Assembly (NCBI GenBank): GCA_016188245.1
Contig: JACPIE010000038.1
Coordinates: forward strand, 30,939 to 94,938
Direction of reading: 5' to 3'
DNA: 64,000 nucleotides
DNA from: Candidatus Woesearchaeota archaeon
Lineage (GTDB): Archaea; Nanobdellota; Nanobdellia; Woesearchaeales; GW2011-AR4
This document shows, piece after piece, positions 4,199-45,960 of this stretch (positions are counted from its first letter, which is position 1; every line of letters begins with the position of its first letter). Made by a program: the position numbers and the translations under genes. Below the pieces are notes generated by a model. The model was given only the letters and a program-made list of their open reading frames with translations. It was not told where the DNA came from and searched no databases.

Positions 4199-5920
4199 TT
4201 AAAAATATTCCGGCTCCGAAATGCTTATTCCATTTTTAGTGAAATAGCTTGGAGCAGCTCGTTTCAATATTTCATCAACCACTGCTGCCTGAGCCATCCT
4301 CTCTTTCAAAGCCGCTCCCATACCCTGAATTTCTTTGGCTTGATTCTTTAATTCAAGTACCCCTAAATTCTGAACTTTTCGGATCTTTTTTTCATCTTCT
4401 ATGACTCTCTCATCTGCCTCGAAGGAAAATGGATTTATTGCCCTGCCAATCCTTCTTCTTAGGGTTTCAAGCTTTGCTCTGGTCAAGTATACATAAGCGC
4501 CTATGTACGAATTTATCGCCTTATTTTTATTTTCAACCCACGATGCATTTTCTTCAACAAAATTCAATACAGGCTCGCCATAGTCCAGCAACGCATTTGT
4601 GAACGCTATCTTTTCTGCTCTTGTTTCTTTCCTTAAAAAGCCGAGCTCTGTTAGCAGCAGTGCTTCAAACTCCCTTAAGTTTGCTGACTTTCTTTTTGCG
4701 TCTTTGAAAAGATTTCTTAAAATGGCAGCAAGCTCTCTTAATTTTGCATTGATATCTCCTGCTGTCAACTCTTTCCTTCTTTGACTGAATATTTCGGTTA
4801 ATTCTTCCGATGCAGGCAGTATAATATGGGCATTTTGATATGACGGATGGACTAATCTTTTATATTGTAAGTTTAATTCCGCATACCAAGCTGAAGGTGT
4901 TTCATTAGTATGCAAGGCCTCCATCCTATCCGCAAATTTTGTATTTCCAAATTTTTTCCTGAACAACTCAATGAACCTTTCACCACCCATCAAATTTGGA
5001 TAGAATTCATTACCTTGCCCATCCTTTTCGCTAAATCCTTCCCACCTACCTTTGGGCATAGCATCCTTGACTATAGCTATCCATTTTACAAAAAAATCAA
5101 CCTGTCTTTTGTATGTCAACAGGCTTTTTAAGGCATTGGATTTATTGATTTGCGTCACTAAATTTTGTTTATCCTTGAAATACCTGATTAATCCAAGAAA
5201 ATTCTGCTTTTCAAGCTTACCGCCTTGCAAGTAAACCATAACCCTATTCCAGAAGAACATTATATTGTTGCCTATCCTAAAGTCTTTCCAGCTTTGAAGA
5301 TCACCAATACATCTGTCAATTTCAGCAGCTTCTGCCCCGCTGATTTCAATAACAAGCTTTCTTAGTTTGTCTTTAAGCTTATCATCCTCTTTCAATAGAT
5401 TCACCCAGTTAACCAATTCTGCCCCGTGAGTCTGAAGATATGACTTGGCAAATTCCGGATTTGCGTTCAGGGCAGCCAATAATGCGCCCAGGATTGGAAT
5501 TGCATTTTCTTGCGCAGGGCTGAATTTTCTAAGTGCATTTGCCAATCTTGGGTTGTTTGCTTCAATGCCTGCTTCCTTTTCACTGCCTTTTAAAGCCTTT
5601 AATTTTTCATTTTCAAAACTTGCAGCGTCCTGAAGCAGAAAGTATCTAAGCCGAAGGGCTTTTCCGTAGGAATTCCACCTTTTATTCAGCCTAATCAGCA
5701 ATTCCTGCGATTTTAGCACACTCCAATATTTTTCCCATACAAACCTTCTGTCAGCCAAATATTGAAACAGATTGGATGGGGCTGCTTTTGGCTCCATTTG
5801 CCACATTCTTTCCAGTGCCTGCACATCTGCATCAGCAGAAGCTTCATTTCCTCTTTTTTCGATTTTATTAATTACTGCCATTTTATTTGCTCTTTTCAAT
5901 TGTTGCAGTGCCTTTGGCAA
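4199..5920 (-). CDS. large hypothetical protein (573 aa), operon gene 4
   Basis: Long ORF, soluble and alpha-helical in character, no known motif. Its 5' end overlaps the upstream gene by 38 nt, consistent with translational coupling. Confidence 0.55.
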   Translation of the reverse strand: MPKALQQLKRANKMAVINKIEKRGNEASADADVQALERMWQMEPKAAPSNLFQYLADRRFVWEKYWSVLKSQELLIRLNKRWNSYGKALRLRYFLLQDAASFENEKLKALKGSEKEAGIEANNPRLANALRKFSPAQENAIPILGALLAALNANPEFAKSYLQTHGAELVNWVNLLKEDDKLKDKLRKLVIEISGAEAAEIDRCIGDLQSWKDFRIGNNIMFFWNRVMVYLQGGKLEKQNFLGLIRYFKDKQNLVTQINKSNALKSLLTYKRQVDFFVKWIAIVKDAMPKGRWEGFSEKDGQGNEFYPNLMGGERFIELFRKKFGNTKFADRMEALHTNETPSAWYAELNLQYKRLVHPSYQNAHIILPASEELTEIFSQRRKELTAGDINAKLRELAAILRNLFKDAKRKSANLREFEALLLTELGFLRKETRAEKIAFTNALLDYGEPVLNFVEENASWVENKNKAINSYIGAYVYLTRAKLETLRRRIGRAINPFSFEADERVIEDEKKIRKVQNLGVLELKNQAKEIQGMGAALKERMAQAAVVDEILKRAAPSYFTKNGISISEPEYF

Positions 5921-7535
5921 ATCTTAGCGTATCCCTTAATTGCTCTTCTGAATTGGGCCAGTCTTTTGAGTCGTCAGGGAATCTGGCTAAAATTTCCTGA
6001 ATTATTCTTGCCGACTGCCACTCTCTTGCCCTTATCAGAGCTTCCAAATATGCCTGAATTCCGGATACCGTAACCATCGGATATCTATTGTCAGGCTCTG
6101 CTTTCTTAAACTCATTTATTCCCTTGAACGGAATTCTGCCAGGGTTCGCCAAAGCCCTCCTGTCAAATTTTATTCCGCCAATTCCTGTAAACTTAACCAA
6201 GTCATCATTGAGGTGGACATCTTTTTTTTCTTCAAATGCCTTGATATAGTCTGAAGTTGTCCTGCTCTTTGCAGCCAATTCTCCGAATCTGAAATTTTGC
6301 AGATAAGTTTGCCATACCTTTTCCAATTCAGCCCTCATCATCAAGAAATTCGGAATGAAATGCGACATTGCTTTTGGATTGAGAAGCTTTTGCGGCTTTG
6401 CTCCAGACCTATTCACTTCTGCTTCATTCATCTTGTCAACTTCAACTCCGAATATATCCACTTCTAACCCTTTAGGGGCATCTTGTCCGCCAGTTGCCGC
6501 ATGCAAATCTCTCCTGAATTTTGCACCTAGCTTTGTTATTATGTAATGATGCCTGTAATCCCCTGCAATATTGTACATGTCATACAAATTCAGGACTAAT
6601 GAGTGCACTTCATGGTGAACGCCGAAAGCCTCTACCCTTCCTATGCTTTTTACAGCTCCTTCTTCTCCAAAAAACTGGGCGAAATCTGAATGTGCTTCCT
6701 CAGCCGCAGAATCAATTCTTTTTCTTATTTCATTCAGCTTGCCTGTAATCTCGATTAGAGCCCTTTTCTTTGCTGACTGCAGTTCTTTCTTTTTGCTTTC
6801 TGAATCTGTTTTGCCTATTGCCGCATTGTAATCTTTGACAACAAGAATTGATTCAAACATCAAGTCAGTTGTTTTGTTTATTGTGCTTAAAAGCACTTTG
6901 TCAAAAGATGTCCATCCCGAAATCTCTTTTCCTTCAGAAGTAGTGCCGCCGCTCCTGTAAGCCCTTATATCCTGCCTGAGAGCAGACCTTGTAAATGGTT
7001 GTTTTCCAGTTTCTTCCAAACTTTCGGCAAATCCAAATCTTCCCAAATCCTTATTTAACTGCTGTAATTTTTTTTGTATGTCATTTTTAATTGCATACCA
7101 TTTTGCAATCAGCGTGTCAAGCCTTAGCGCATAGTCCAGCAAAACAAAAGTCAATAATCTGTTTTCCCTGAAAGATTTTGGCTGATAGCCCGCTTCCCAC
7201 TCCCATTTTGTTATGGTTTCTGATTTGCCTTTCCATTTCTGCCATTTGTCCCTAATCCTGTTTCGGACAAATGCGCCCCTGCCTTTTCTTGACTGCCTGT
7301 CAAAATTCCTTGTTTCTTTTGATTTGGCAGCCCTTCCGGCAGCATCAAAGCCAAATCCGCTTAAAGTAGATTGTTTTGCGGAATATATTAATGCAAATAC
7401 GAGTCCTCCGCCTAATACGGCCATAACATATGGACTCATAGTTCCAACTAGGCCGTACGTTGGTATCCCTGTTAATTGAATAGCAAATAAAATACCTAAA
7501 CATCCAATACCCCATATCATGTCGTATATATCCAT
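5883..7535 (-). CDS. membrane-anchored hypothetical protein (550 aa), operon gene 3
   Basis: Two N-terminal TM helices ('GIGCLGILFAIQLTG...', 'VMAVLGGGLVFALIYSA') followed by a large soluble domain. No known motif. Confidence 0.55.
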   Translation of the reverse strand: MDIYDMIWGIGCLGILFAIQLTGIPTYGLVGTMSPYVMAVLGGGLVFALIYSAKQSTLSGFGFDAAGRAAKSKETRNFDRQSRKGRGAFVRNRIRDKWQKWKGKSETITKWEWEAGYQPKSFRENRLLTFVLLDYALRLDTLIAKWYAIKNDIQKKLQQLNKDLGRFGFAESLEETGKQPFTRSALRQDIRAYRSGGTTSEGKEISGWTSFDKVLLSTINKTTDLMFESILVVKDYNAAIGKTDSESKKKELQSAKKRALIEITGKLNEIRKRIDSAAEEAHSDFAQFFGEEGAVKSIGRVEAFGVHHEVHSLVLNLYDMYNIAGDYRHHYIITKLGAKFRRDLHAATGGQDAPKGLEVDIFGVEVDKMNEAEVNRSGAKPQKLLNPKAMSHFIPNFLMMRAELEKVWQTYLQNFRFGELAAKSRTTSDYIKAFEEKKDVHLNDDLVKFTGIGGIKFDRRALANPGRIPFKGINEFKKAEPDNRYPMVTVSGIQAYLEALIRAREWQSARIIQEILARFPDDSKDWPNSEEQLRDTLRFAKGTATIEKSK

Positions 7536-28991: not shown

Positions 28992-30752
28992 TTACCTTCT
29001 CAAAAACCCGCTCAAAGTAATCTGCTCATCACGTTTTGAGCTCAAATAAATCACCTGGCCTTCTCTTGAGCCATACCTGTAAACAGAAATTCCTTTACAG
29101 CCGAGCTCATAGGCCATCATAAAGATTTTCTCAACATCTTCAACAGTTGCGTCTTTTGGCAAAGTTACGGTTTTTGAAATGCCGTTGTCAACATATTTCT
29201 GGAAGGCAGCCTGCATCCTGACGTGCCATTCCGGGGCAATGTCGGAGCCGACAACAAATATCTTTTTTAGTTTATCAGGAATCTCGTCTATATTTTTTAA
29301 CGAGCCTTCTTTGTTGATTTTATCAATTATCTCGTCATTGTACATATAATTTTCCTTAAGGGATTTCTTCAGCTCTTCATTAAAATAAATTAATGTTTTT
29401 CCTTCTGCAGTCCTCCTTGCATAGCTCAGGGCAAACAAAGGCTCTATGCCGCTTGACACGTCTGCAATTATGCTTATTGTGCCTGTCGGCGCAATTGTTG
29501 TTCTTGTTGCGTTCCTTAAGGGCATGTGGCAGCCTTTGAAGTATTTTGATTTCTTGTTGTAAACACTGTTTTTCCATTCCGGGAAAGCGCCTCTTTTCCC
29601 TGCAAGCTCAAGTGATGCAATGCTTGCTTCTTTTGAGATGAATTTCATGATTTTTTCTGCCGCATTTAGCCCATCTTGGGAATCATAGGCAATTCCGAGC
29701 TTTATGAGCATGTCGGCAAATCCCATGACCCCAAGCCCGATTTTTCTGTTCTTGTAAACAATTTTTTTATTTTCTTCCAGCGGGTATTGGCACATGTCAA
29801 TCACATTGTCAAGAAAATGCACGGCAGAATGCACAATTTTTTTTAATCTTTCAAAATTTATTTTTTTGCCATCAGCCATATTTGACAGGTTAATGCTTCC
29901 CAGATTGCATGCTTCATACGGCAGAAGCGGCTGCTCGCCGCAGCTGTCTGTGCTCTCAATTTTTCCAAGCTTTGGAGTCTGGTTAAACTCATTAATCCTG
30001 TCTATGAAGATGACTCCGGGGTCTCCATTTAGCCATGCCTGCCCGCAAATCAGCCTGAAAATTCTTTTTGCGCTTTCTTTTTTTTCAATTTTTTTTGTTC
30101 TTGGGTTCTCCAGGCTGTAATTCTTGTTTTTCCTGGCAGCCTGCATGAATTTGTCAGTTATGGCAACTGAAACATTGAAATTAGTGAGCACATTCTCTTT
30201 GCTTTTTATTGTTATGAACTCTTCAATATCTGGATGGCTTGCATTCAGAATCCCCATGTTGGCCCCCCTTAAAGTGCCGCCGAGCTTTATCTGCCCAGTT
30301 GCCGCGTCAAACACCTTCATGAAGGAAACAGGCCCAGAAGTAAAGCCGGAACTTTCTATCATGTCTCCTTTTGGCCTCAGCCTTGAAAAATTGAATCCTG
30401 TGCCGGCCCCTGTTTTATGAATCAAGGCCGCATCATGCAGAGTCTTAAAAATTGAGCTTATGTCATCTTCAATCGGCAGGACAAAGCAGGCTGCAAGCTG
30501 CTGCAGCTTTCTCCCGGCATTGAGCAGAGTCGGAGAATTCGGCAGAAAATCCAAAGACACCATCAAATCGTAGAATTCCTGCTCCGTTTTTTTGGCATTT
30601 CCCCCGTATCTTGCATCAGGCTTGGCAATATTCCTTGCAACTCTCCTGAACATGTTTCCCGGCCCCTCGACAACTTTTCCATTTTCATTTTTTTTCAGGT
30701 ACCTATGCTCAAGAATCAATAACGCATTTTTTGACAGGCTAAGCTTTTGCAT
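28992..30752 (-). CDS. nrdJ: adenosylcobalamin-dependent ribonucleotide reductase (class II), compact paralog without ATP cone or inteins
   Basis: Matches the large RNR at 33971 in 'GAGTGFNFSRLRPKGD', 'LRGANMGILNASHPDIEEFI', 'DPGVIFIDRINEFN', 'STDSCGEQ...EACNLGSINLS', 'TIAPTGTISIIADVSSGIEP'. It lacks the N-terminal ATP cone and the C-terminal Zn ribbon. Confidence 0.8.
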   Translation of the reverse strand: MQKLSLSKNALLILEHRYLKKNENGKVVEGPGNMFRRVARNIAKPDARYGGNAKKTEQEFYDLMVSLDFLPNSPTLLNAGRKLQQLAACFVLPIEDDISSIFKTLHDAALIHKTGAGTGFNFSRLRPKGDMIESSGFTSGPVSFMKVFDAATGQIKLGGTLRGANMGILNASHPDIEEFITIKSKENVLTNFNVSVAITDKFMQAARKNKNYSLENPRTKKIEKKESAKRIFRLICGQAWLNGDPGVIFIDRINEFNQTPKLGKIESTDSCGEQPLLPYEACNLGSINLSNMADGKKINFERLKKIVHSAVHFLDNVIDMCQYPLEENKKIVYKNRKIGLGVMGFADMLIKLGIAYDSQDGLNAAEKIMKFISKEASIASLELAGKRGAFPEWKNSVYNKKSKYFKGCHMPLRNATRTTIAPTGTISIIADVSSGIEPLFALSYARRTAEGKTLIYFNEELKKSLKENYMYNDEIIDKINKEGSLKNIDEIPDKLKKIFVVGSDIAPEWHVRMQAAFQKYVDNGISKTVTLPKDATVEDVEKIFMMAYELGCKGISVYRYGSREGQVIYLSSKRDEQITLSGFLRR

Positions 30753-30831: not shown

Positions 30832-31113
30832 ATGGAGCACTTATCCATCAGGGAAGTCCATGACCGGCTTTTGGAGCTTCAAGGCTGGGAGATGTCAGAC
30901 CATTCTTCCATCTTCAAGGAATTCGAGTTTGACAATTTCAAGGAAGCTATGGAGTTTGCAAATAAAGTCGGGGAAGAGGCCCAAAGGGAAAATCACCATC
31001 CGGACATCCTGGTGAAGTACAATAAAGTCACTTTAACTTTGACAACTCACGATGAAGGCGGATTGACTTATAAGGACTTTAAGCTGGCCAAGATCATTGA
31101 GCAGATGGTTTGA
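30832..31113 (+). CDS. phhB: pterin-4a-carbinolamine dehydratase
   Basis: 'ENHHPDILVKYNKVTLTLTTHDEGGLTYKD' is the PCD/DCoH signature. Confidence 0.8.
   Translation: MEHLSIREVHDRLLELQGWEMSDHSSIFKEFEFDNFKEAMEFANKVGEEAQRENHHPDILVKYNKVTLTLTTHDEGGLTYKDFKLAKIIEQMV
31078..31113. repeat. direct repeat copy 1 (3' end of phhB, 36 bp)
   Basis: tttaagctggccaagatcattgagcagatggtttga. Identical at 34 of 36 positions to 32283..32318. Confidence 0.8.
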
Positions 31114-31241
31114 ATCTTAGAATTGAAAGGGCAAATAGCGATAATGGGATTTGAGGCTAGAGTTTCGAAATTATTAGACGAACTCATAATAACAAAAATT
31201 AAGGGCGTAATATTTATATAGTTAAGAGTACAAATAGTTTA

Positions 31242-31466
31242 TTGCGATTAAAAATGCAATCTTTTACAGCAGTTTTGCATAAGGAAGAAGACATGTATGT
31301 AGCAGAATGCCCGGAAGTTGGTACAGTTAGCCAAGGCAAGAACATTGACGAAGCAGTTTCTAACCTCAAAGAAGCCACCGAACTTTACTTGGAAGAATTT
31401 CCAGTAAAGGAAAAACGAAAAACTTGGCTGACGACTTTTGAGGTGGCTATTGATGCCGGAACTTAG
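31242..31466 (+). CDS. hicB: HicB-family antitoxin (UPF0150)
   Basis: 'FTAVLHKEEDMYVAECPEVGTVSQGKNIDEAVSNLKEATELYLEE'. Likely start at MQSFTAV. Confidence 0.7.
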   Translation: MRLKMQSFTAVLHKEEDMYVAECPEVGTVSQGKNIDEAVSNLKEATELYLEEFPVKEKRKTWLTTFEVAIDAGT

Positions 31467-31683
31467 GAAAGTATCTGGCGAAAAGGCTGTAAAGATTCTT
31501 TGCAACAAATTGGGATTTTCTATAAGCGGGCGAACTGGCTCTCATGTTAGATTATCGAAAGAAACGCCAGAAGGGAAAGTCGGAACAGTTGTGCCAATTC
31601 ATTCTGAACTGAAAATTGGAACTCTGAAAGGAATTTTGAAGCTTGCAAAAGTGGACGAAGAGGAGTTTAAAAAATACCTATGA
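31438..31683 (+). CDS. hicA: HicA-family mRNA interferase toxin (YcfA-like)
   Basis: 'LRKVSGEKAVKILCNKLGFSISGRTGSHVRL' and 'VPIHSELKIGTLKGILKLA'. Overlaps the end of hicB. Confidence 0.75.
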   Translation: MRWLLMPELRKVSGEKAVKILCNKLGFSISGRTGSHVRLSKETPEGKVGTVVPIHSELKIGTLKGILKLAKVDEEEFKKYL

Positions 31684-32282
31684 CGGGAAAACTTGAAAAG
31701 AAAAGTTTTAAATTTAAGCCTAAAACTGATACTAAAATGGGATTGTTTTCAGACCATGATATAAATGAGGCTGAAAGAGCTTTAGGCGCATTGCAACCGC
31801 CTATAGATCGCGAAACAAAGATTTTAATTCTTAGGGGTTTTGAAAAAGGGTGGAAAGCGCTAGGAGACATAAGTGGCAATATTCATTATGATGAATCTAT
31901 TAGGGAGCAAGTGATAACCCTTAGGAATGAAGCTACTCGAATTAAAGTTGAAAATTTAACAAAAAAACCCTTTGATTTTGGATATATATTGGGATGTTTA
32001 ATTGGCACTTTAAGATTTCATCCAACATCTTTACTCAAATATGGGGACAAAAGGTTCCTTAAAAAACTTTCCCGGAGTATTAACTCTTTAAGAAAAATTT
32101 CCCCCATTCATGACTTGGTCATAAGATATTTAAGAGAATGGCAGGAATGGATAGTGTTCTATTCCAGATTTCCAAGTGCTATCCTTTACAGGAATGCTAC
32201 AGTGGGCAGGCCTCCAACCGAAGATGAAAAAAATAAGATGCGCCAGCTTTACGAGCTTTTTGTCAGGGAGGTAGGGCTTTAG
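31680..32282 (+). CDS. hypothetical protein (200 aa) carried on the inserted segment
   Basis: Clean ORF overlapping the hicA stop by 4 nt. No motif recognised. Confidence 0.4.
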   Translation: MTGKLEKKSFKFKPKTDTKMGLFSDHDINEAERALGALQPPIDRETKILILRGFEKGWKALGDISGNIHYDESIREQVITLRNEATRIKVENLTKKPFDFGYILGCLIGTLRFHPTSLLKYGDKRFLKKLSRSINSLRKISPIHDLVIRYLREWQEWIVFYSRFPSAILYRNATVGRPPTEDEKNKMRQLYELFVREVGL

Positions 32283-32318
32283 TTTAAGCTGGCCAAGATA
32301 ATAGAGCAGATGGTTTGA
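32283..32318. repeat. direct repeat copy 2 (displaced phhB 3' end remnant)
   Basis: tttaagctggccaagataatagagcagatggtttga. The two differences from copy 1 are synonymous Ile codon changes (atc/att to ata). Confidence 0.8.
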
Positions 32319-32638
32319 GGTTTTATAAGATGGGCAAAACTGCGCGAAGAATTTTGATTGGCTCTGCAGCCTTTGTGTTCACAGGATTGGTGCATAGAAT
32401 ACTTGAAGATGAAATTTTAAGGCTAAAATCACTTAAATTTATAAGCGAGACTGCAGCAGAAAGAGCCAAAACCCCAGACGATAGGTATATTCATCAAAAA
32501 CGCTCTGAATACTATGGAAGGCTTGCCATCATTGCTGAAACTATTCAGTCTATAAACCCCTTTTCCATCCCATCCCATTTAAGAAATGTTTACAACAACT
32601 ATTCATCAAAAAAGCACTATGAAGCTGGCAAATCTTAA
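32315..32638 (+). CDS. hypothetical protein
   Basis: Likely start at MGKTARRIL. One hydrophobic segment. No motif recognised. Confidence 0.3.
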   Translation: MRFYKMGKTARRILIGSAAFVFTGLVHRILEDEILRLKSLKFISETAAERAKTPDDRYIHQKRSEYYGRLAIIAETIQSINPFSIPSHLRNVYNNYSSKKHYEAGKS

Positions 32639-33970: not shown

Positions 33971-36900
33971 TTAAGTGCAGAGGCCCCATCCGCATCCCGG
34001 GCAGTGCAAACATCCTTCTTTAAGCTCAACTTTAGTGCCGCACTCCGGGCAGTTCTTGATTGTCTGTTTTGTAATCGGCCTTGCATCGCTTCCATTGCCG
34101 TTGGCAAAAACAAGCCCGGATTCCGACTCTTTGACCATCTTTTTCATCTCTGGCTTTATGTCCACTTCAATATTTGCGCCTTCCTTTTTCTCTTTGGCTT
34201 TTGGGGCGACAAGCACTTGATCCTTGATGCTGGAATCCCTGAACACAGTCACATCCTTGCAGCCAAGCGTGTAAGCCAGGATATAGCTTTCTTTCATGTC
34301 CTCAACAGTTGCATCTGCAGGAAAATTGTTTGTCTTTGAAATGCTTGAGTCCACCCATTTCTGGAATGATGCTAAAGCTCTTATATGGTCTTCCGGAGTC
34401 ATGTCAGTTGCCGTAACAAGCACCTTCCTCAGTTGCTCAGGCAGATATTCAATTCCCTGTATGCTGCCCCTGTGCTCGTTTATGTCTTCCATGAGCTTTT
34501 CATTCAACAGACCTTCATCCCTGAGCACTTTTTCAGCAGCGGGATCCACATAATAAAAGCTGCCGACTTTCACATTCTTCTCAAACACAAGGGAATAAAC
34601 CGGTTCCATTCCTGATGAGCATCCGGCAATCATTGAAATGCTCCCTGTTGGGGCGATTATTGTAGTATACCCATTCCTGATGCCGTGCTTCTTTATGTCT
34701 TCGCTTATTTTGCCCCAGTCAAAATGCGATTCATCTTTTAAATAAGGGCCCCTTATCGGCAATTTTCCCTGCTTGTAAAAGCTTTTGTCATAATATGGAA
34801 GATTGCCCCTTGCCTTTGCAAGCTCTATGCTTTCAACCTTGCTCCAGTAGGCTATGAACTCCATCAGCAGCTCCATGAATTTTCTTCCTTGTTCTGAGTT
34901 GTAGGCAAGCCTTAATTCATACAGCAAATCACCGACTCCCATTACACCCAATCCTATCTTCCTTGTGCTTAAGCTCATCTCCTCGATTGCTTTTAACGGG
35001 AAATTGTTGACATCAATAACATTGTCCAAAAATCTTGTGCAGCCCCTTACAACCTCCCTTAATGAGTCCCAGTCAACTGTCTTGTTGCCTTCCTCATCTT
35101 CTTTTGTAAATGCCCATACATTTATGCTGCCAAGATTGCACGGCTCATTTGGGTAAAGCAGAACTTCGCCGCAATTATGCACAACAATGCCATTGGCTAT
35201 GAAAGAATGTGTTGATGGTTCTGTAATGTCATAAACTTCTTCAATGCCACTTATCTCTATTCTATCTATGCTGTCTTCATGTTCTTCATTAGTAGTTATT
35301 ATCCTATCTTCTTCCGTTAATTTTGCAGCTTCTATCCACCCATTTGAAGTCAGTATTTTATGATCTGGTGTGCATCTCAAGTCATTTCCTTTTTTGGTAA
35401 TCAATTTAATGGTTTGTTTTAAGCCGGTTTTGAACACTTTATATTGCGTAACATGATTTATCAATTCCAAAAATTGATTTCCGTTTTTTACCGTTTGATG
35501 TACGGCTATTCCCACACCTCCATTAGGATATTTTTCAGCCAATTCTTTTATACTTATCGAACCACTCTTGGTCAAAATCATTGTATCTCCTGTTACGCAA
35601 GGATTAGTCGTGACAATAGGCCCAAGATGCTCGTAAAATGGGTTGTATTCATTTACCCTGTCAAAAAATATAATGCCGGGCTCTGCAGATTCCCAGGCCT
35701 GATAGACAACCTTGTCAAATAACACTCTTGGGTTTACAGTTTTGACCACTTTTCCGTCCTTTGGATTGACTAAGGGATATGGCTCGTTCTTTTCATAATG
35801 CTCCCAAAAATCAGGCATTATCAGTATGCTTATGTTGAAATTCCTCAATGACTTGTTGCCATCCTTGGCGGTTATGAACTGCTCTATGTCAGGATGGTTT
35901 GAATTCAGGATGCCCATGTTTGCCCCTCTTCTTATCCCCCCTTGCTTTATCACTTCAGTCATTGTATCAAACAGCCTCATGAAGCTCAAAGGCCCTGAAG
36001 CTACCCCCCCTGTGGAGCTGACAAAATCGCCTTCCGGCCTGAGCTTTGAGAAATTGTAACCCATGCCGCCTCCTGCTTTAAACACAATTGCAGTATTCTT
36101 TAGCGTTTCCATGATTCCGTCTATGGAGTCCGGAACATCCAATACAAAGCAATTATGCACAGAAACCATATTTGCAACATAAGAATGGTCTTCTTCAATC
36201 TCAAGATTGTATACAGTTCCGACATAATCCACTTTCGATATTTCGTCTATTTCTGTAAAGGTTATGCCATCTGCAACAATGGTATTTGGCTTGTAACCAC
36301 TATCAACTTCCTGCCTGTCAAATAATTCATTAATAAGCAAAAGGCCATTTTCTCCGCTTATTGTGCACCTATAAGGCTGGGTTGTTCCAAGCTTCGGCAT
36401 AGACTCCTTACCTAAAGCAGTAAAGACACCGCAGCGCATAGCCATCTGCCAGAAAGCATAAACTAAATTTTGATTGCACATCACAAGTTTTGCGTTTGTT
36501 TTATGCGAGTTTTTGAATATGGTGCCGTCTCCTCTTATCAGTCCAGCCATAATTCCTTTTTGCTTATTCTGGGGCAGTTTTATAATCCATTGCGGTATAT
36601 ATTTATTTTTATACCCTCTGCCTAAAATGTTTTCAAAGAAATTAGCCAGTATTGTAGAATGAAACCTTAACGATAGCCATTTTCTAGCTTCGCTATTTGT
36701 TTTTTCTATTCTTGCAGAAACTCCAAATTTATTCTCCATTATTGATATAACTTCTCTGCAATAATTTTCCTCATCGGCCGAAAATGTAAATCTTACACAA
36801 TCCTTGTCTGCAATTGAGCCTTCAGAAAGATAATACCCAAATAACTTCATAAGCTCGTAATCAACAGTAATGCTATTTTTTACAGGCTTTGTAGTGTGTA

Positions 36901-38104
36901 CAAATGCATTGAATTTTCCTCCCTTATACTCATAGGCACACTCATCCTTTTCATTCAAGGTTACATTTTTAACTACGTCATTAATCCTTATTTCTGTAAT
37001 TTCTTCTGTTTCTGTAGGGTAAGATAAAGCTACATAATCTCCTTCATCAAGCATATTAAGCTGTATCCATTGAATCTTGTTGTCCTTATAGCTCAGTATA
37101 GGATGCTCTTCTGTTACAAGCATGGAAGGCTTTGGGAGTTTGCTGCAACTCACTTTGTATAAAGAGTTCGTATCTCTAACATATACTTTTTCAACTTTTC
37201 TAAACCTGCCCCTGTGTGTCAGTACTTCATCTCCAACTTTAATGTTTTTTATTTCCTTTGGACCATCTTTAGCCATTATTGGTTGGTTTGGATGAAAGCA
37301 TGCGCTTCCCATTCCCAAAGGATTGCCAAAATTGGCAATTGCAGGGGTATTCGGCATAAACAGCTTTCTTGTCATCAAATTGTAAAGCTCATCAAAATTC
37401 TTCTCATAGCTGTCAAGCTCGCCTTTCTTTATCATATCAAAGAGCTTGCTCCATGACACTTTCATCTGCCCGTTGCCGTTGAACCTGTCGTACATTCTCT
37501 TCAGCGCTTCCAGATGATACCTGTTAAGCCTGTATTTTCCAATTCCATACTGGTCTTCATTAATAGCGGGCTTGAAGTCTTCTGTGAAGTTTACCGGCTG
37601 CTGGCCGTGTATATCGAACAATCTTGCATCGTAAAACAAGTCAGGCAAAGCCGCATGCACTGCAACTCTTGTAAATAGCTGCTTGGGAGTTTCAATCAGC
37701 TTGCCTGTTGCATCCTTTCTCAAGTACCTTGCTTTCAGGACCCTTAACGCGTTTACATCAAAGCGCTTGTCAACTTCGTCAATTTCCTCTTTTTCAAGCA
37801 CAAGCTGCTTTTCCTTTCTTACCTCTGACCTTTGCTGCCTGTAAAGAATGTAGGCTTTTGCAGTTGCAGCATGCCCTTCCTCAATAAGCACTTTTTCCAC
37901 AATGTCCTGAATTTCTTCAACAGAAGGCACGTCTTTGTTGAGATTTTCAAGCTGCCCAATAACTTTGTCGCTGATTTGCCTGGCTGCTTTCCTGTCTTTT
38001 CCTCCGACAGCCCTTGCAGCCTTGAAAACAGCCTCTGTAATCTTGTTTTGGTCAAATCCTGCCACAGTCCCGTCCCGTTTCCTTATCTGAAAAAGCTTTT
38101 GCAT
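33971..38104 (-). CDS. nrdJ: adenosylcobalamin-dependent ribonucleotide reductase (class II) with ATP cone, two inteins and C-terminal Zn ribbon
   Basis: N-terminal ATP cone 'IRKRDGTVAGFDQNKITEAV'. Catalytic exteins 'GGGMGYNFSKLRPEGD', 'GIRRGANMGILNSNHPDIEQFI' and NPC|GE. C-terminal 'CPECGTKVELKEGCLHCPGCGWGLCT'. The intein-free product would be 852 aa. Confidence 0.9.
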   Translation of the reverse strand: MQKLFQIRKRDGTVAGFDQNKITEAVFKAARAVGGKDRKAARQISDKVIGQLENLNKDVPSVEEIQDIVEKVLIEEGHAATAKAYILYRQQRSEVRKEKQLVLEKEEIDEVDKRFDVNALRVLKARYLRKDATGKLIETPKQLFTRVAVHAALPDLFYDARLFDIHGQQPVNFTEDFKPAINEDQYGIGKYRLNRYHLEALKRMYDRFNGNGQMKVSWSKLFDMIKKGELDSYEKNFDELYNLMTRKLFMPNTPAIANFGNPLGMGSACFHPNQPIMAKDGPKEIKNIKVGDEVLTHRGRFRKVEKVYVRDTNSLYKVSCSKLPKPSMLVTEEHPILSYKDNKIQWIQLNMLDEGDYVALSYPTETEEITEIRINDVVKNVTLNEKDECAYEYKGGKFNAFVHTTKPVKNSITVDYELMKLFGYYLSEGSIADKDCVRFTFSADEENYCREVISIMENKFGVSARIEKTNSEARKWLSLRFHSTILANFFENILGRGYKNKYIPQWIIKLPQNKQKGIMAGLIRGDGTIFKNSHKTNAKLVMCNQNLVYAFWQMAMRCGVFTALGKESMPKLGTTQPYRCTISGENGLLLINELFDRQEVDSGYKPNTIVADGITFTEIDEISKVDYVGTVYNLEIEEDHSYVANMVSVHNCFVLDVPDSIDGIMETLKNTAIVFKAGGGMGYNFSKLRPEGDFVSSTGGVASGPLSFMRLFDTMTEVIKQGGIRRGANMGILNSNHPDIEQFITAKDGNKSLRNFNISILIMPDFWEHYEKNEPYPLVNPKDGKVVKTVNPRVLFDKVVYQAWESAEPGIIFFDRVNEYNPFYEHLGPIVTTNPCVTGDTMILTKSGSISIKELAEKYPNGGVGIAVHQTVKNGNQFLELINHVTQYKVFKTGLKQTIKLITKKGNDLRCTPDHKILTSNGWIEAAKLTEEDRIITTNEEHEDSIDRIEISGIEEVYDITEPSTHSFIANGIVVHNCGEVLLYPNEPCNLGSINVWAFTKEDEEGNKTVDWDSLREVVRGCTRFLDNVIDVNNFPLKAIEEMSLSTRKIGLGVMGVGDLLYELRLAYNSEQGRKFMELLMEFIAYWSKVESIELAKARGNLPYYDKSFYKQGKLPIRGPYLKDESHFDWGKISEDIKKHGIRNGYTTIIAPTGSISMIAGCSSGMEPVYSLVFEKNVKVGSFYYVDPAAEKVLRDEGLLNEKLMEDINEHRGSIQGIEYLPEQLRKVLVTATDMTPEDHIRALASFQKWVDSSISKTNNFPADATVEDMKESYILAYTLGCKDVTVFRDSSIKDQVLVAPKAKEKKEGANIEVDIKPEMKKMVKESESGLVFANGNGSDARPITKQTIKNCPECGTKVELKEGCLHCPGCGWGLCT
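35174..35599 (-). mobile_element. intein 2 (142-aa mini-intein) inserted at the NPC|GE radical-Cys motif
   Basis: 'VTTNP|CVTGDTMILTK...GIVVHN|CGEVLLYPNEPCNLGSIN'. Cys1, a terminal HN and a +1 Cys are present and there is no endonuclease domain. The paralog reads '...SCGEQPLLPYEACNLGSINLS' at this site. Confidence 0.85.
36152..37300 (-). mobile_element. intein 1 (383 aa) with LAGLIDADG homing-endonuclease domain, inserted before a conserved active-site Cys
   Basis: Begins with Cys ('GMGSA|CFHPNQ') and ends 'MVSVHN|CFVLDV'. LAGLIDADG blocks 'LFGYYLSEGSI' and 'IMAGLIRGDGTI'. The extein junction aligns with 'LAACFVLPIEDD' in the intein-free paralog. Confidence 0.85.
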
Positions 38105-40327: not shown

Positions 40328-40925
40328 TATCAGAGAGCTTGTTAAAGCTAAAATCTGGCTTTTCTTTTATTTTGTTATTATTATGCCAAAGTACAAGCCC
40401 AGAAAGACATCCAGCGTTTTTTGCAGCCAGAATATCCACATCCTGATCGCCGATATAGATTGTATTTTCAACATCTCCTTTTAGGTAATTGATGGCAATT
40501 AGTAAGGGTTTTGGGCTAGGCTTTCTAGCTCTTGTTTCACTGGGAGTTACTATCACATCTCCATATCTCAATAGATTGAATTGATTTAGCAATTTAAACG
40601 CAAACTCCTTTTTCAAAGAAGTTACAAATCCAATCTTTTTATCATTGCTTTTAAGGACTTTCATAGTTTCTTGAGTATTTTCAAAAAATAGTCTAATTTT
40701 GTCCAAATTGCTAGCATAAAATTTCCAGTATTTATTTAAGGACATAATACGGAATTCTGACAATATAGAGGTAAAAGATGCTCCCTTTCTTAATTTTGTA
40801 AATACATCTTCTTGATTAATATTTTTTCCTCCAGAATCCAAGATTGTATTAAATATTGCTTCAGCAATGCAATTTTCTGAATGCCAAAGTGTACCATCTA
40901 AATCAAATAAAATTGTCTTAATCAT
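40314..40925 (-). CDS. HAD-superfamily phosphatase
   Basis: Motif I 'ILFDLDGTLWHSE' and C-terminal 'IYIGDQDVDILAAKNAG'. Confidence 0.75.
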   Translation of the reverse strand: MIKTILFDLDGTLWHSENCIAEAIFNTILDSGGKNINQEDVFTKLRKGASFTSILSEFRIMSLNKYWKFYASNLDKIRLFFENTQETMKVLKSNDKKIGFVTSLKKEFAFKLLNQFNLLRYGDVIVTPSETRARKPSPKPLLIAINYLKGDVENTIYIGDQDVDILAAKNAGCLSGLVLWHNNNKIKEKPDFSFNKLSDIISL

Positions 40926-41830
40926 TTAAAGGGAAATTTTACTTCATGACCATTAGCAAAAGCAATGATTTCGGCTTTTTGGTCATTTTTAATTTTCAAA
41001 TTACCACTATACGCTTCGGTATTGTCTTGGAATGGGATAAGAACCCCAATTGGCTTTTTTTGCTCCTTTGCTGCAATATAGGAATTCATAGTTCCTCCTT
41101 TTTCAGAAGTCTGCACAATCAAAACATAATTTGATAGCCCAACTATTATTTTATTCCTTTTTTTCAGGGCAAAATCTTGAACTTTGGTTCCTGGAGGGTA
41201 TTCACTTATAATTATCCCGTGTTTAATTATTTCATTTTTTAAAATTAAATTTTCTTTAGGATAATCAACGTCAATTCCACATCCTAATACTGCAATAGTA
41301 TCCCCACTATTATCTAATGCTGTTTTATGAGCTATTGCATCAAGTCCCATAGCTAAACCGCTAACTATACAAAAACCATCATTAACTAGTTTTTTTACAG
41401 CAATTTTGCCATTTTCTATTGCCCATTCATCAGGTTTTCTTGTACCTACAACAGCGCAAGATTTTAGTTTATTTAGAGTACTTAAATTTCCTTTAACATA
41501 TAGAATAGGCACAGAATGACTGGACTCAAAGAGGGTTTTGGGGTAATCTTGTTCAAAAAAGGTAATTATCTTTACCTGATTTAAATTTGTTTTTTCTATT
41601 ATCTTGTGTGCTTCATGTTCAAAATATTCTAATTTTGGTTTTCTTTCTAAAATTTGAGAAACTACCTCTTTTTTTAACTTAAATTCACTTTCTAATTCCT
41701 CTTTTGTCATATCAAATACTTTTTGAAATGATTTGTAAGCCTTAAAAAAAGTCTTAAATTTAACTGGGCCAAATCCTTTAACTTCTAAAAGATTTAGAAT
41801 CGCCCCTAGCTCCTTTAGATCATTCACCAT
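40922..41830 (-). CDS. dprA: DNA-processing protein DprA/Smf
   Basis: N-terminal SAM/HhH domain, then Rossmann DprA core 'IVSGLAMGLDAIAHKTAL...TIAVLGCGIDVDYPKEN...RNKIIVGLS'. Confidence 0.8.
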   Translation of the reverse strand: MVNDLKELGAILNLLEVKGFGPVKFKTFFKAYKSFQKVFDMTKEELESEFKLKKEVVSQILERKPKLEYFEHEAHKIIEKTNLNQVKIITFFEQDYPKTLFESSHSVPILYVKGNLSTLNKLKSCAVVGTRKPDEWAIENGKIAVKKLVNDGFCIVSGLAMGLDAIAHKTALDNSGDTIAVLGCGIDVDYPKENLILKNEIIKHGIIISEYPPGTKVQDFALKKRNKIIVGLSNYVLIVQTSEKGGTMNSYIAAKEQKKPIGVLIPFQDNTEAYSGNLKIKNDQKAEIIAFANGHEVKFPFK

Positions 41831-45348: not shown

Positions 45349-45960
45349 TTACCATAAATGGGCTACGTTAACTTTTTTCTCGATTACCCTGAAATAAATG
45401 TCATTGCCGTGTTCAAACTTATGAAAAACTGCCCATGACACAATATCTGCTATCTGCAATCCGGGCCAAGCATGTGACCAGCTGTGGTATATCTCTATCT
45501 CCCTAGCCCATCTCGCTTCTTTGAACTTCATCTCCATATACTTGTTAAAGTCTTCAATTAAAGTCTGCTTTCCTTTTGACCTGTCAATCCTCATAGTCAA
45601 TCTTCTGGAATCAACCGATATATTGGCTAAATGGCTGCACACAAAATTATACAATTTGTGCTTGTCGCTTTTGAGAAATTGGCTATACAATTTTTTCTTT
45701 TCAAGTATAATGCTTTGTGCATGGGCGGATTCAATTTCCATAAACTTTTTTAATGTATGCATAATCAATTCTGCACTTGAGTCATTCGCCTTGATTTCAG
45801 AAGCATTTTTTAGCTCTTTTTTAAATTTGTTTCTTCTCATATTTTTTATTATTCGTTCTAAGAAAGCGGGATTGTCTACCCAAATTGCAGTAATCACAAA
45901 ATATTTTGAGCCCTTTTCTCCTAAATCTCCAGTTTCATCAATGTAAACGTATCTTTCCAT
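45349..45960 (-). CDS. DUF3800-domain protein
   Basis: N-terminal 'VYIDETGDLG' is the signature start of DUF3800. Confidence 0.65.
   Translation of the reverse strand: MERYVYIDETGDLGEKGSKYFVITAIWVDNPAFLERIIKNMRRNKFKKELKNASEIKANDSSAELIMHTLKKFMEIESAHAQSIILEKKKLYSQFLKSDKHKLYNFVCSHLANISVDSRRLTMRIDRSKGKQTLIEDFNKYMEMKFKEARWAREIEIYHSWSHAWPGLQIADIVSWAVFHKFEHGNDIYFRVIEKKVNVAHLW

Follow-up and report, generated by a model that had tools for sequence, protein, structure and literature searches.

How a 1.2-kb segment came to lie between two copies of the 3′ end of a host gene is the question raised by a locus in a 64,000-nt stretch of DNA from a groundwater Candidatus Woesearchaeota archaeon (hereafter the window, meaning the whole stretch that was analysed; coordinates are given in its numbering). 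The host gene encodes pterin-4a-carbinolamine dehydratase (PCD), and its final 11 codons together with the TGA stop (FKLAKIIEQMV*) constitute the first copy of a 36-nt direct repeat at 31078-31113 (TTTAAGCTGGCCAAGATCATTGAGCAGATGGTTTGA), the second copy of which is located at 32283-32318 (TTTAAGCTGGCCAAGATAATAGAGCAGATGGTTTGA). Between the copies are a hicBA toxin-antitoxin (TA) pair and orf181, a gene belonging to a small family of helical proteins. On the evidence given below, we see an even chance that the segment is a small non-autonomous integrative cassette, which would have entered the last 36 nt of the PCD gene by Campbell-style integration, through a recombinase acting in trans or through host recombination, with hicBA as a secondary passenger.

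The locus comprises the following features, with the supporting evidence in parentheses.

30832..31113, plus strand: PCD gene, the target, 93 aa and intact (Pfam Pterin_4a, E-value 6.7e-32, 89 of 91 profile positions).
31078..31113, plus strand: direct repeat copy 1, attL-like, the functional PCD end (repeat search).
31114..31189, plus strand: left inner spacer of the insert, without a homologue in the empty site (sequence comparison).
31190..31704, plus strand: hicBA cassette, with promoter region, hicB, hicA and a conserved tail of ~20 nt (91-93.5% DNA identity across contexts).
31254-31466, plus strand: hicB, 70 aa, HicB-like (Pfam E-value 4e-4, sub-cutoff; PHROG 497 E-value 1.3e-7).
31453-31683, plus strand: hicA, 76 aa (HicA_toxin, E-value 1.4e-13).
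31737..32282, plus strand: orf181 from its most likely start, all-alpha HEAT-like family gene, annotated as 200 aa from 31680 (homologue alignment).
32283..32318, plus strand: direct repeat copy 2, attR-like, a non-coding copy of the PCD end (repeat search).
32330..32638, plus strand: orf102, native downstream gene outside the insert (60%-identical homologue P0004 directly after PCD in contig L029).
32635..33246, minus strand: CobA (ATP:corrinoid adenosyltransferase), convergent neighbour marking the conserved right flank (Pfam E-value 4.9e-55; syntenic in relatives).

The duplicated gene end

The two copies of the repeat are identical at 34/36 positions with a spacing of 1205 nt, and both mismatches (ATC/ATA and ATT/ATA) are silent, being at third positions of Ile codons, which bears out the original prediction, made from the sequence alone, that the PCD end is duplicated with two synonymous differences. 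Similarity breaks off sharply at either end of the repeat, and a repeat longer than 36 nt was rejected, as similarity was absent 5′ of the copies and 3′ of the stop codon. When up to three mismatches were allowed, the 36-mer produced two matches in the window, which were the two known copies, and none in 100 shuffles; the pair is the sole long and close direct repeat in the window. The 36-mer was absent from the rest of the window, from JGI metagenome contigs and from IMG/VR, and the repeat is thus not a common terminator-like motif, a case that had been named beforehand as contrary to the prediction. No hairpin was found in either copy, and the repeat with its flanks folded no better than shuffles; since folding was at shuffle level and the region returned no terminator or Rfam match, a hairpin, attC or terminator nature of the repeat was rejected.

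The left junction of the segment was reproduced by Logan contigs L001-L005, and the right junction by L006-L008 and L053-L055, in all cases with 99.5-100% identity. These contigs represent independent short-read assemblies of about ten sequencing runs from the same study. Because both junctions were recovered independently, and both flanks are syntenic neighbours in relatives, an artefact in the assembly of the metagenome-assembled genome (MAG) was rejected as the source of the repeat.

Copy 2 begins right after the stop codon of orf181 and is a non-coding, displaced PCD end, which continues without a break into DNA whose homologue lies downstream of PCD on contig L029 of a relative. Copy 2 (region 32280-32318) is also in the reading frame of orf181 with only a TAG stop between them, and read-through would add the PCD tail FKLAKIIEQMV to the protein. 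This shared frame is probably due to chance, since the frames differ in a second locus of the family, L050, which is described below.

The empty site in relatives

The closest PCD loci were those of groundwater Woesearchaeota and Nanoarchaeota MAGs, and the PCD orthologues in Woesearchaeota relatives showed 67-88% amino-acid identity. The most similar PCD (88%) is on contig L029, in the order PCD, 41-44 nt, orf102 homologue, and CobA; the orf102 homologue, 60% identical, was the only one found. In blastn comparison, window positions 31112-32324 stand where L029 has 2703-2743. As the orf102 homologue directly follows PCD, L029 is the empty site that had been predicted, and the window contains an insertion of 1,205 bp with the repeat at its borders.

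In L009, L011, L012 and L015, the PCD stop overlaps the stop of the convergent CobA gene (TTAA), and in the window it is the orf102 stop that overlaps the CobA stop in exactly the same manner. Other DNA follows PCD in L010, L013, L014 and L016. Judging by these gene orders, the PCD/CobA junction is a hotspot of gene gain, with different inserts in six genomes. A duplicated PCD end was found in none of the relatives, and hicBA was present at the junction in 0 of 9. The relatives, accordingly, do not share HicBA at this position without repeats, the other situation that the original prediction had regarded as contrary to it.

Two further arrangements were observed in the loci compared. L029 carries a PIN/MazE TA pair (1740-2325) between a gene for a 586-aa reductase and PCD, where the window has an 80-nt intergenic region, and no repeats were found to flank this pair. 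In L016 (5278/8578) and L051 (630/3621), 30-nt direct repeats (27/30 identical) at distances of 3.0-3.3 kb bracket housekeeping genes, from the reductase to PCD in the former and from FEN1 to TrmB in the latter.

The orf181 family and its recurrence at LonB

The gene at the right-hand side of the insert had been taken for an orphan of 200 aa (31680-32282). GenBank lists this ORF as a hypothetical protein of a Candidatus Woesearchaeota archaeon, and it matched only itself in a word-indexed search. By exhaustive HMMER search, 17 distant relatives were identified (25-42% identity, 118-178 aa), and the gene is thus a member of a small family, which comprises 18 clusters at 50% identity. All 17 relatives align from residue 20 of the annotated ORF, the first 19 codons of which fall in the conserved tail of the hicBA cassette, and this places the true start most likely at 31737, giving a complete gene of 181 aa (31737-32282). 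Of the gene content predicted for the segment, hicA stands as proposed, the gene before it is HicB-like, and the third gene is probably shorter. Truncation of orf181 by the insertion was rejected, its C-terminus being aligned with the C-termini of the homologues.

The family is recognized by the N-terminus MGLFSDxDINEA and by the motifs FLxGFExGWK and FGxxLGxLVGxLRFHP. The AlphaFold2 model of orf181 (pLDDT 86) is all-helical and resembles a HEAT-like alpha-solenoid; no Pfam match was obtained for the protein, and it shows no features of a recombinase. The loci of the family carry archaeal housekeeping genes (LonB, Kae1, FEN1, and RNase P Rpr2), on the basis of which the family is archaeal. Neither the family nor the insert was found in phage collections, plasmid collections or IMG/VR.

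The same layout recurs at an unrelated target. Contigs L050 and L049 represent one locus from two Hainich groundwater assemblies, in which a family member of 159 aa, 28% identical to orf181, is located 56 nt after LonB. A 33-nt copy of the last 10 codons and stop of LonB starts at the family gene's own stop codon; the copy is 25/33 identical, in frame, and with the stop kept (NILKQIVAAD* vs KILRQIVAVD*). An alignment of 96 nt around the stop codon of the family gene with the preceding 2.6 kb scored higher than each of 200 shuffles (z 4.9). In both the window and L050, the repeat ends exactly at the stop codon of the target, the displaced copy begins at the stop of the family gene, and the orientation is that of the target. 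The L050 unit is 567 bp long and lacks hicBA; because the layout is complete without it, the gene tied to the repeat geometry is the orf181 family gene and not hicBA.

For the frequency of this geometry, the last 33 nt of each ORF of at least 80 codons was compared with the 3 kb downstream, in the window and in 22 loci. Besides the window and L050, only a trivial tandem match of adjacent sequence was returned, with zero hits in the upstream control, and the geometry was found nowhere else in the about 425 kb scanned. Moreover, a second, more divergent family member (hhalign probability 96%) follows the displaced LonB end in L050. With only 23% identity to the first, the two paralogues do not look like recent tandem duplicates but rather like successive arrivals at one site.

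Some other loci of the family contain repeats or mobility genes of their own. In L046, a 32-nt direct repeat (29/32; 4737-4768/5576-5607) flanks an 839-bp segment in which a PIN gene and a 101-aa ORF converge. The family member directly downstream has in its start region a run of seven T residues, which breaks the frame relative to the near-identical P0009. Family member P0005, present in L040, was identical in 12 contigs from several projects, always beside an IS240-like transposase. L040 (2076-2108/4297-4329; 5143-5958) contains a 33-nt repeat (CACAAATTTTATGGAGCGAAGCGGAATAAAATT) twice at a distance of 2.2 kb among small unannotated ORFs, and a tyrosine recombinase 3.5 kb downstream.

The hicBA cassette

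The toxin gene was identified by the HicA_toxin domain PF07927 (51.2 bits, cutoff 27). The HicB domain PF15919 scored 20.9 bits, under its cutoff of 27, and the HicB-like PHROG 497 was matched with an E-value of 1.3e-7. hicB is upstream of hicA with an overlap of 14 nt, the two forming one operon with its own promoter, and the promoter region includes a TATA-like box (TTTATATA) at 31213-31220.

Contigs with a gene for the exact 76-aa HicA numbered 23 and represent at least six unrelated contexts, namely after SecDF, beside glycosyltransferases, beside an AsnC regulator, after a Toprim protein, beside an IS66 transposase, and beside HNH genes. They come from groundwater metagenomes of several projects, among them Hainich groundwater, a further NC_groundwater MAG, and data of JGI and Logan. 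The 70-aa HicB is upstream in every context where the contig extends far enough. DNA identity with the other contexts is 91-93.5% and confined to ~31190-31704; in seven contexts, 14-21 of the 231 nt of hicA are different (6-9%) and the protein is unchanged. Part of the left inner spacer recurs ahead of hicBA in L034 (from ~31128) and L030 (from ~31160). No long direct repeats were found flanking hicBA in its other contexts. Judging from this distribution, hicBA is an independently mobile promoter-plus-operon cassette of ~0.5 kb, which is at odds with the earlier picture of the insert as a single unit, and, as it occurs in unrelated contexts without repeats, it does not explain the 36-nt repeat. 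An 11-nt repeat (AATGGGATT) around hicBA at 31139 and 31733 was discounted, because its left copy lies in DNA common to the hicBA context of L034.

Additional observations were made on the cassette. In the comparison of L030-L039, the promoter and leader of ~55 nt is nearly invariant, i.e. more conserved than silent sites. A gene for an HNH endonuclease follows hicBA directly in L032 (1768-2205), L036 (517-966) and L038 (2194-2505), with the intervening DNA shared, and in L038 an IS66 transposase is upstream of hicBA-HNH; the hicBA-HNH arrangement may be a homing unit. All Logan contigs end inside hicBA (31216-31635). One of them, L001 (window 31245-31461), has 12 single-nucleotide polymorphisms, all in hicB and none across 2 kb of flank, which stem either from a second hicBA allele at the locus or from a path in the de Bruijn graph that strayed into a different copy of the cassette.

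Proposed mechanism and alternatives

In the integrative reading, the core unit would consist of a copy of the target's final ~11 codons with the stop, a short promoter spacer, and one gene of the orf181 family. One Campbell-type crossover, in which the gene-end copy on a circular intermediate recombined with its chromosomal counterpart, would have joined the cassette to the chromosome. From then on, PCD would read into a functional end, which is copy 1, and copy 2 would be stranded downstream, right after the orf181 stop. Copy 2 would then be the native end, and part of copy 1 would have been brought by the element; copy 2 (ATAATA) agrees with L029 at both variable positions, and these two bases weakly suggest such an origin. 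That the repeat ends at the stop codon in both instances would be expected of an element bearing a coding imitation of the gene end. The attP-type junction would comprise the orf181 stop, the 36-mer and ATCTTAGAATTG, i.e. ...GGTAGGGCTTTAG + 36-mer + ATCTTAGAATTGAAAGG, and the attB-type junction would be ...ACTTATAAGGAC + 36-mer + GGTTTTATAAGATGGGC.

As no recombinase is encoded by the cassette, the crossover enzyme would have been either an integrase supplied in trans or the homologous recombination machinery of the host acting on the 36-bp identity. The hicBA operon is situated in the spacer upstream of orf181, where its probable role is that of an addiction module that keeps the insert in place; which of orf181 and hicBA came first, and which enzyme acted, belong to the conjectural part of the model. 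Of the site-specific integrative element originally proposed, the empty site and the intact PCD gene were found; a site-specific integrase may have acted, but so may target duplication or homology-driven insertion.

Several results weigh against integration of a mobile cassette. Neither in the insert nor in the window was an integrase, transposase or endonuclease found, in agreement with the prediction that no integrase remains; the search comprised Pfam on 30 of the window's 52 ORFs with 150 aa or more, and tblastn with tyrosine recombinase, IS66, IS240 and HNH queries. Nor does the family protein offer a substitute, as the family has no invariant polar catalytic residues and its predicted fold is a plain alpha-solenoid. 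The repeat is present in only 2 of 9 family contexts, the seven others being without it, and the two targets, PCD and LonB, differ, so a sequence-specific integrase would have needed a change of specificity. An excised circle, a second occupied site or another copy of the 36-mer was not found in the JGI metagenome contigs, IMG/VR or the population contigs. Every population contig carries the insert, with no empty-site variant of the source population among them, and there is no sign of current mobility. Finally, both window copies have lineage-specific bases (CTGGCC) seen in no relative, a pattern which fits duplication in situ and equally the cycling of an element within the lineage.

Among the alternatives, a single illegitimate or homology-facilitated recombination that followed the uptake of DNA, with no dedicated element and an accidental repeat, is unlikely. 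It would account for the lack of a recombinase and for a hotspot whose contents vary among relatives, it is compatible with the DprA gene in the window (40922-41830), and L029 has acquired a different TA pair, PIN/MazE, on the other side of PCD without repeats. An accident would, however, have to be repeated at the unrelated LonB with a related gene, in the same orientation, with near-equal repeat length and the same stop-codon boundaries, although the layout is otherwise missing from the about 425 kb scanned. Somewhat less probable is a target-site duplication, in which a transposition- or Cas1-like insertion with staggered cuts of ~33-36 bp would have left two host-derived copies, the downstream one decaying. 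The lineage-specific bases in both window copies, absent from all relatives, are in line with it; the repeats are of similar length in the two cases (36 and 33 nt), the L050 substitutions show no significant third-position bias, and the PIN module beside a family gene in L046 is flanked by a 32-nt repeat. Both repeats end exactly on a stop codon, however, which a sequence-blind staggered cut would not do twice, and neither terminal inverted repeats at the ends of the insert nor, within the search described above, a Cas1 or transposase in the window were found. Casposons produce target duplications of 14-15 bp, and to our knowledge no prokaryotic transposon has a 33-36-bp duplication, which counts against this explanation as well.

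A homing-type mobile ORF as in fungal mitochondria, in which a lost or trans-acting endonuclease would cut the 3′ end of the target and repair would copy in the cassette with a replacement C-terminus, was considered improbable, below the two former explanations. The order of gene core, inserted C-terminus, mobile ORF and native C-terminus is that of the mobile ORFs (mORFs) in atp6, atp9, cox2 and nad3 (PMC3630166), and in L032, L036 and L038 the hicBA cassette is immediately followed by HNH genes. The insert itself, on the other hand, is without an endonuclease gene, no HNH relative was present in the window, and the family protein is a predicted alpha-solenoid without nuclease motifs. Effectively refuted is a local duplication, either in tandem of the gene end with the downstream gene, or as the variable and template repeats of a diversity-generating retroelement (DGR). 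The family paralogues flanking the displaced LonB end in L050 resemble the product of the former, but they share only 23% identity, compared with 76% for the repeat, paralogue A has more in common with the gene in the window (28%), and orf102 of the window is not a family member (hhalign probability 0.1%). For a DGR speaks that both window mismatches have A in the non-coding copy; this applies to only 1 of 8 mismatches in L050, the repeat is only 36 bp, the window mismatches are silent, and no reverse transcriptase was found in the Pfam scans of the window. Integron features were likewise not found in the window, neither an attC hairpin nor an integrase.

Other features of the window

Elsewhere in the window, the gene for a class II ribonucleotide reductase of 1377 aa (33971-38104, minus strand) contains two insertions, at residues ~276-651 and 865-972, both of which are missing from the orthologues in L009, L010 and L015. 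With ends of the C...HNC type and a LAGLIDADG-like motif (LFGYYLSEGS), the insertions look like two inteins. A second, insertion-free reductase paralogue of 586 aa is located at 28992-30752. In addition to the DprA gene, which may bear on DNA uptake and recombination, a DUF3800 gene was identified at 45349-45960 (minus strand).

Significance

DPANN archaea have tiny genomes, and their gene gain is poorly understood. If the integrative reading is true, recombinase-less cassettes of 0.6-1.2 kb that enter the ends of essential genes harmlessly would represent a new minimal route of gene gain, and the signature of gene end, cassette and displaced gene end would be searchable in metagenomes. A wider proposal, which is based on two instances and which we regard as tentative and rather doubtful, is that the helical "MGLFSD" family marks an undescribed class of ~0.6-kb single-gene DPANN cassettes, which would enter housekeeping genes (PCD, LonB) within their final ~11 codons and supply a substitute end. 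Such cassettes would be the prokaryotic equivalent of mORFs but would encode neither nuclease nor recombinase, and other tiny cassettes like hicBA could use them as landing pads. Apart from this, the hicBA cassette with its invariant toxin in unrelated groundwater loci offers a clean case for how TA pairs move alone.

Comparison with known systems

Archaeal integrated elements use 3′-distal parts of protein-coding genes as attachment sites of tens of bp, and for crenarchaeal attachment sites a range of 29-69 bp is quoted (PMC6563490). The insert resembles thaumarchaeal cryptic integrated elements in its flanking direct repeats, in the gene restored by one repeat, in the empty sites in relatives, and in the repeat length, which is within 29-69 bp. 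Those archaeal elements are, however, multigene, from kilobases to tens of kilobases long, and integrase-encoding, whereas the insert described here is 1.2 kb (0.57 kb in L050) and has no recombinase. Cis-mobilizable elements (CIMEs) are att-flanked remnants without an integrase, which are mobilised by a related element integrating alongside. To these the insert is similar in having att-like repeats at a gene 3′ end and no integration or transfer genes, and the tandem family genes in L050 would fit accretion. Unlike for CIMEs, no parent element with an integrase is known for the site; the host is a DPANN archaeon and not a Firmicute, and the insert is of much smaller size.

Mobile ORFs with C-terminal duplication have been described in atp6, atp9, cox2 and nad3 of Glomus and in atp6 of Allomyces, where the displaced native C-terminus diverges mostly at silent sites (PMC3630166). 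The order of gene core, replacement C-terminus, mobile ORF and displaced native C-terminus is the same here, with a duplicated C-terminal segment in both the window and L050. In mORFs the mobile gene encodes a LAGLIDADG or GIY-YIG endonuclease and 50-280 nt is duplicated, in contrast to the helical-repeat protein, TA pair and 33-36 nt of the present cases. The nested hicBA corresponds to type II HicAB systems in its HicA domain above the Pfam cutoff, in the small upstream HicB-like gene overlapping hicA by 14 nt, and in its own promoter. It departs from typical HicAB in that HicB is only 70 aa, under the Pfam cutoff and without a recognisable DNA-binding domain, and in being a discrete 0.5-kb cassette with a HicA protein frozen across loci.

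Repeats that duplicate a gene 3′ end around an insert are a well-known signature, and the locus is ordinary in that respect. What is unusual is the small size of the insert (1.2 and 0.57 kb) without a mobility gene, one rare helical family at two targets, and a widespread hicBA mini-cassette nested within.

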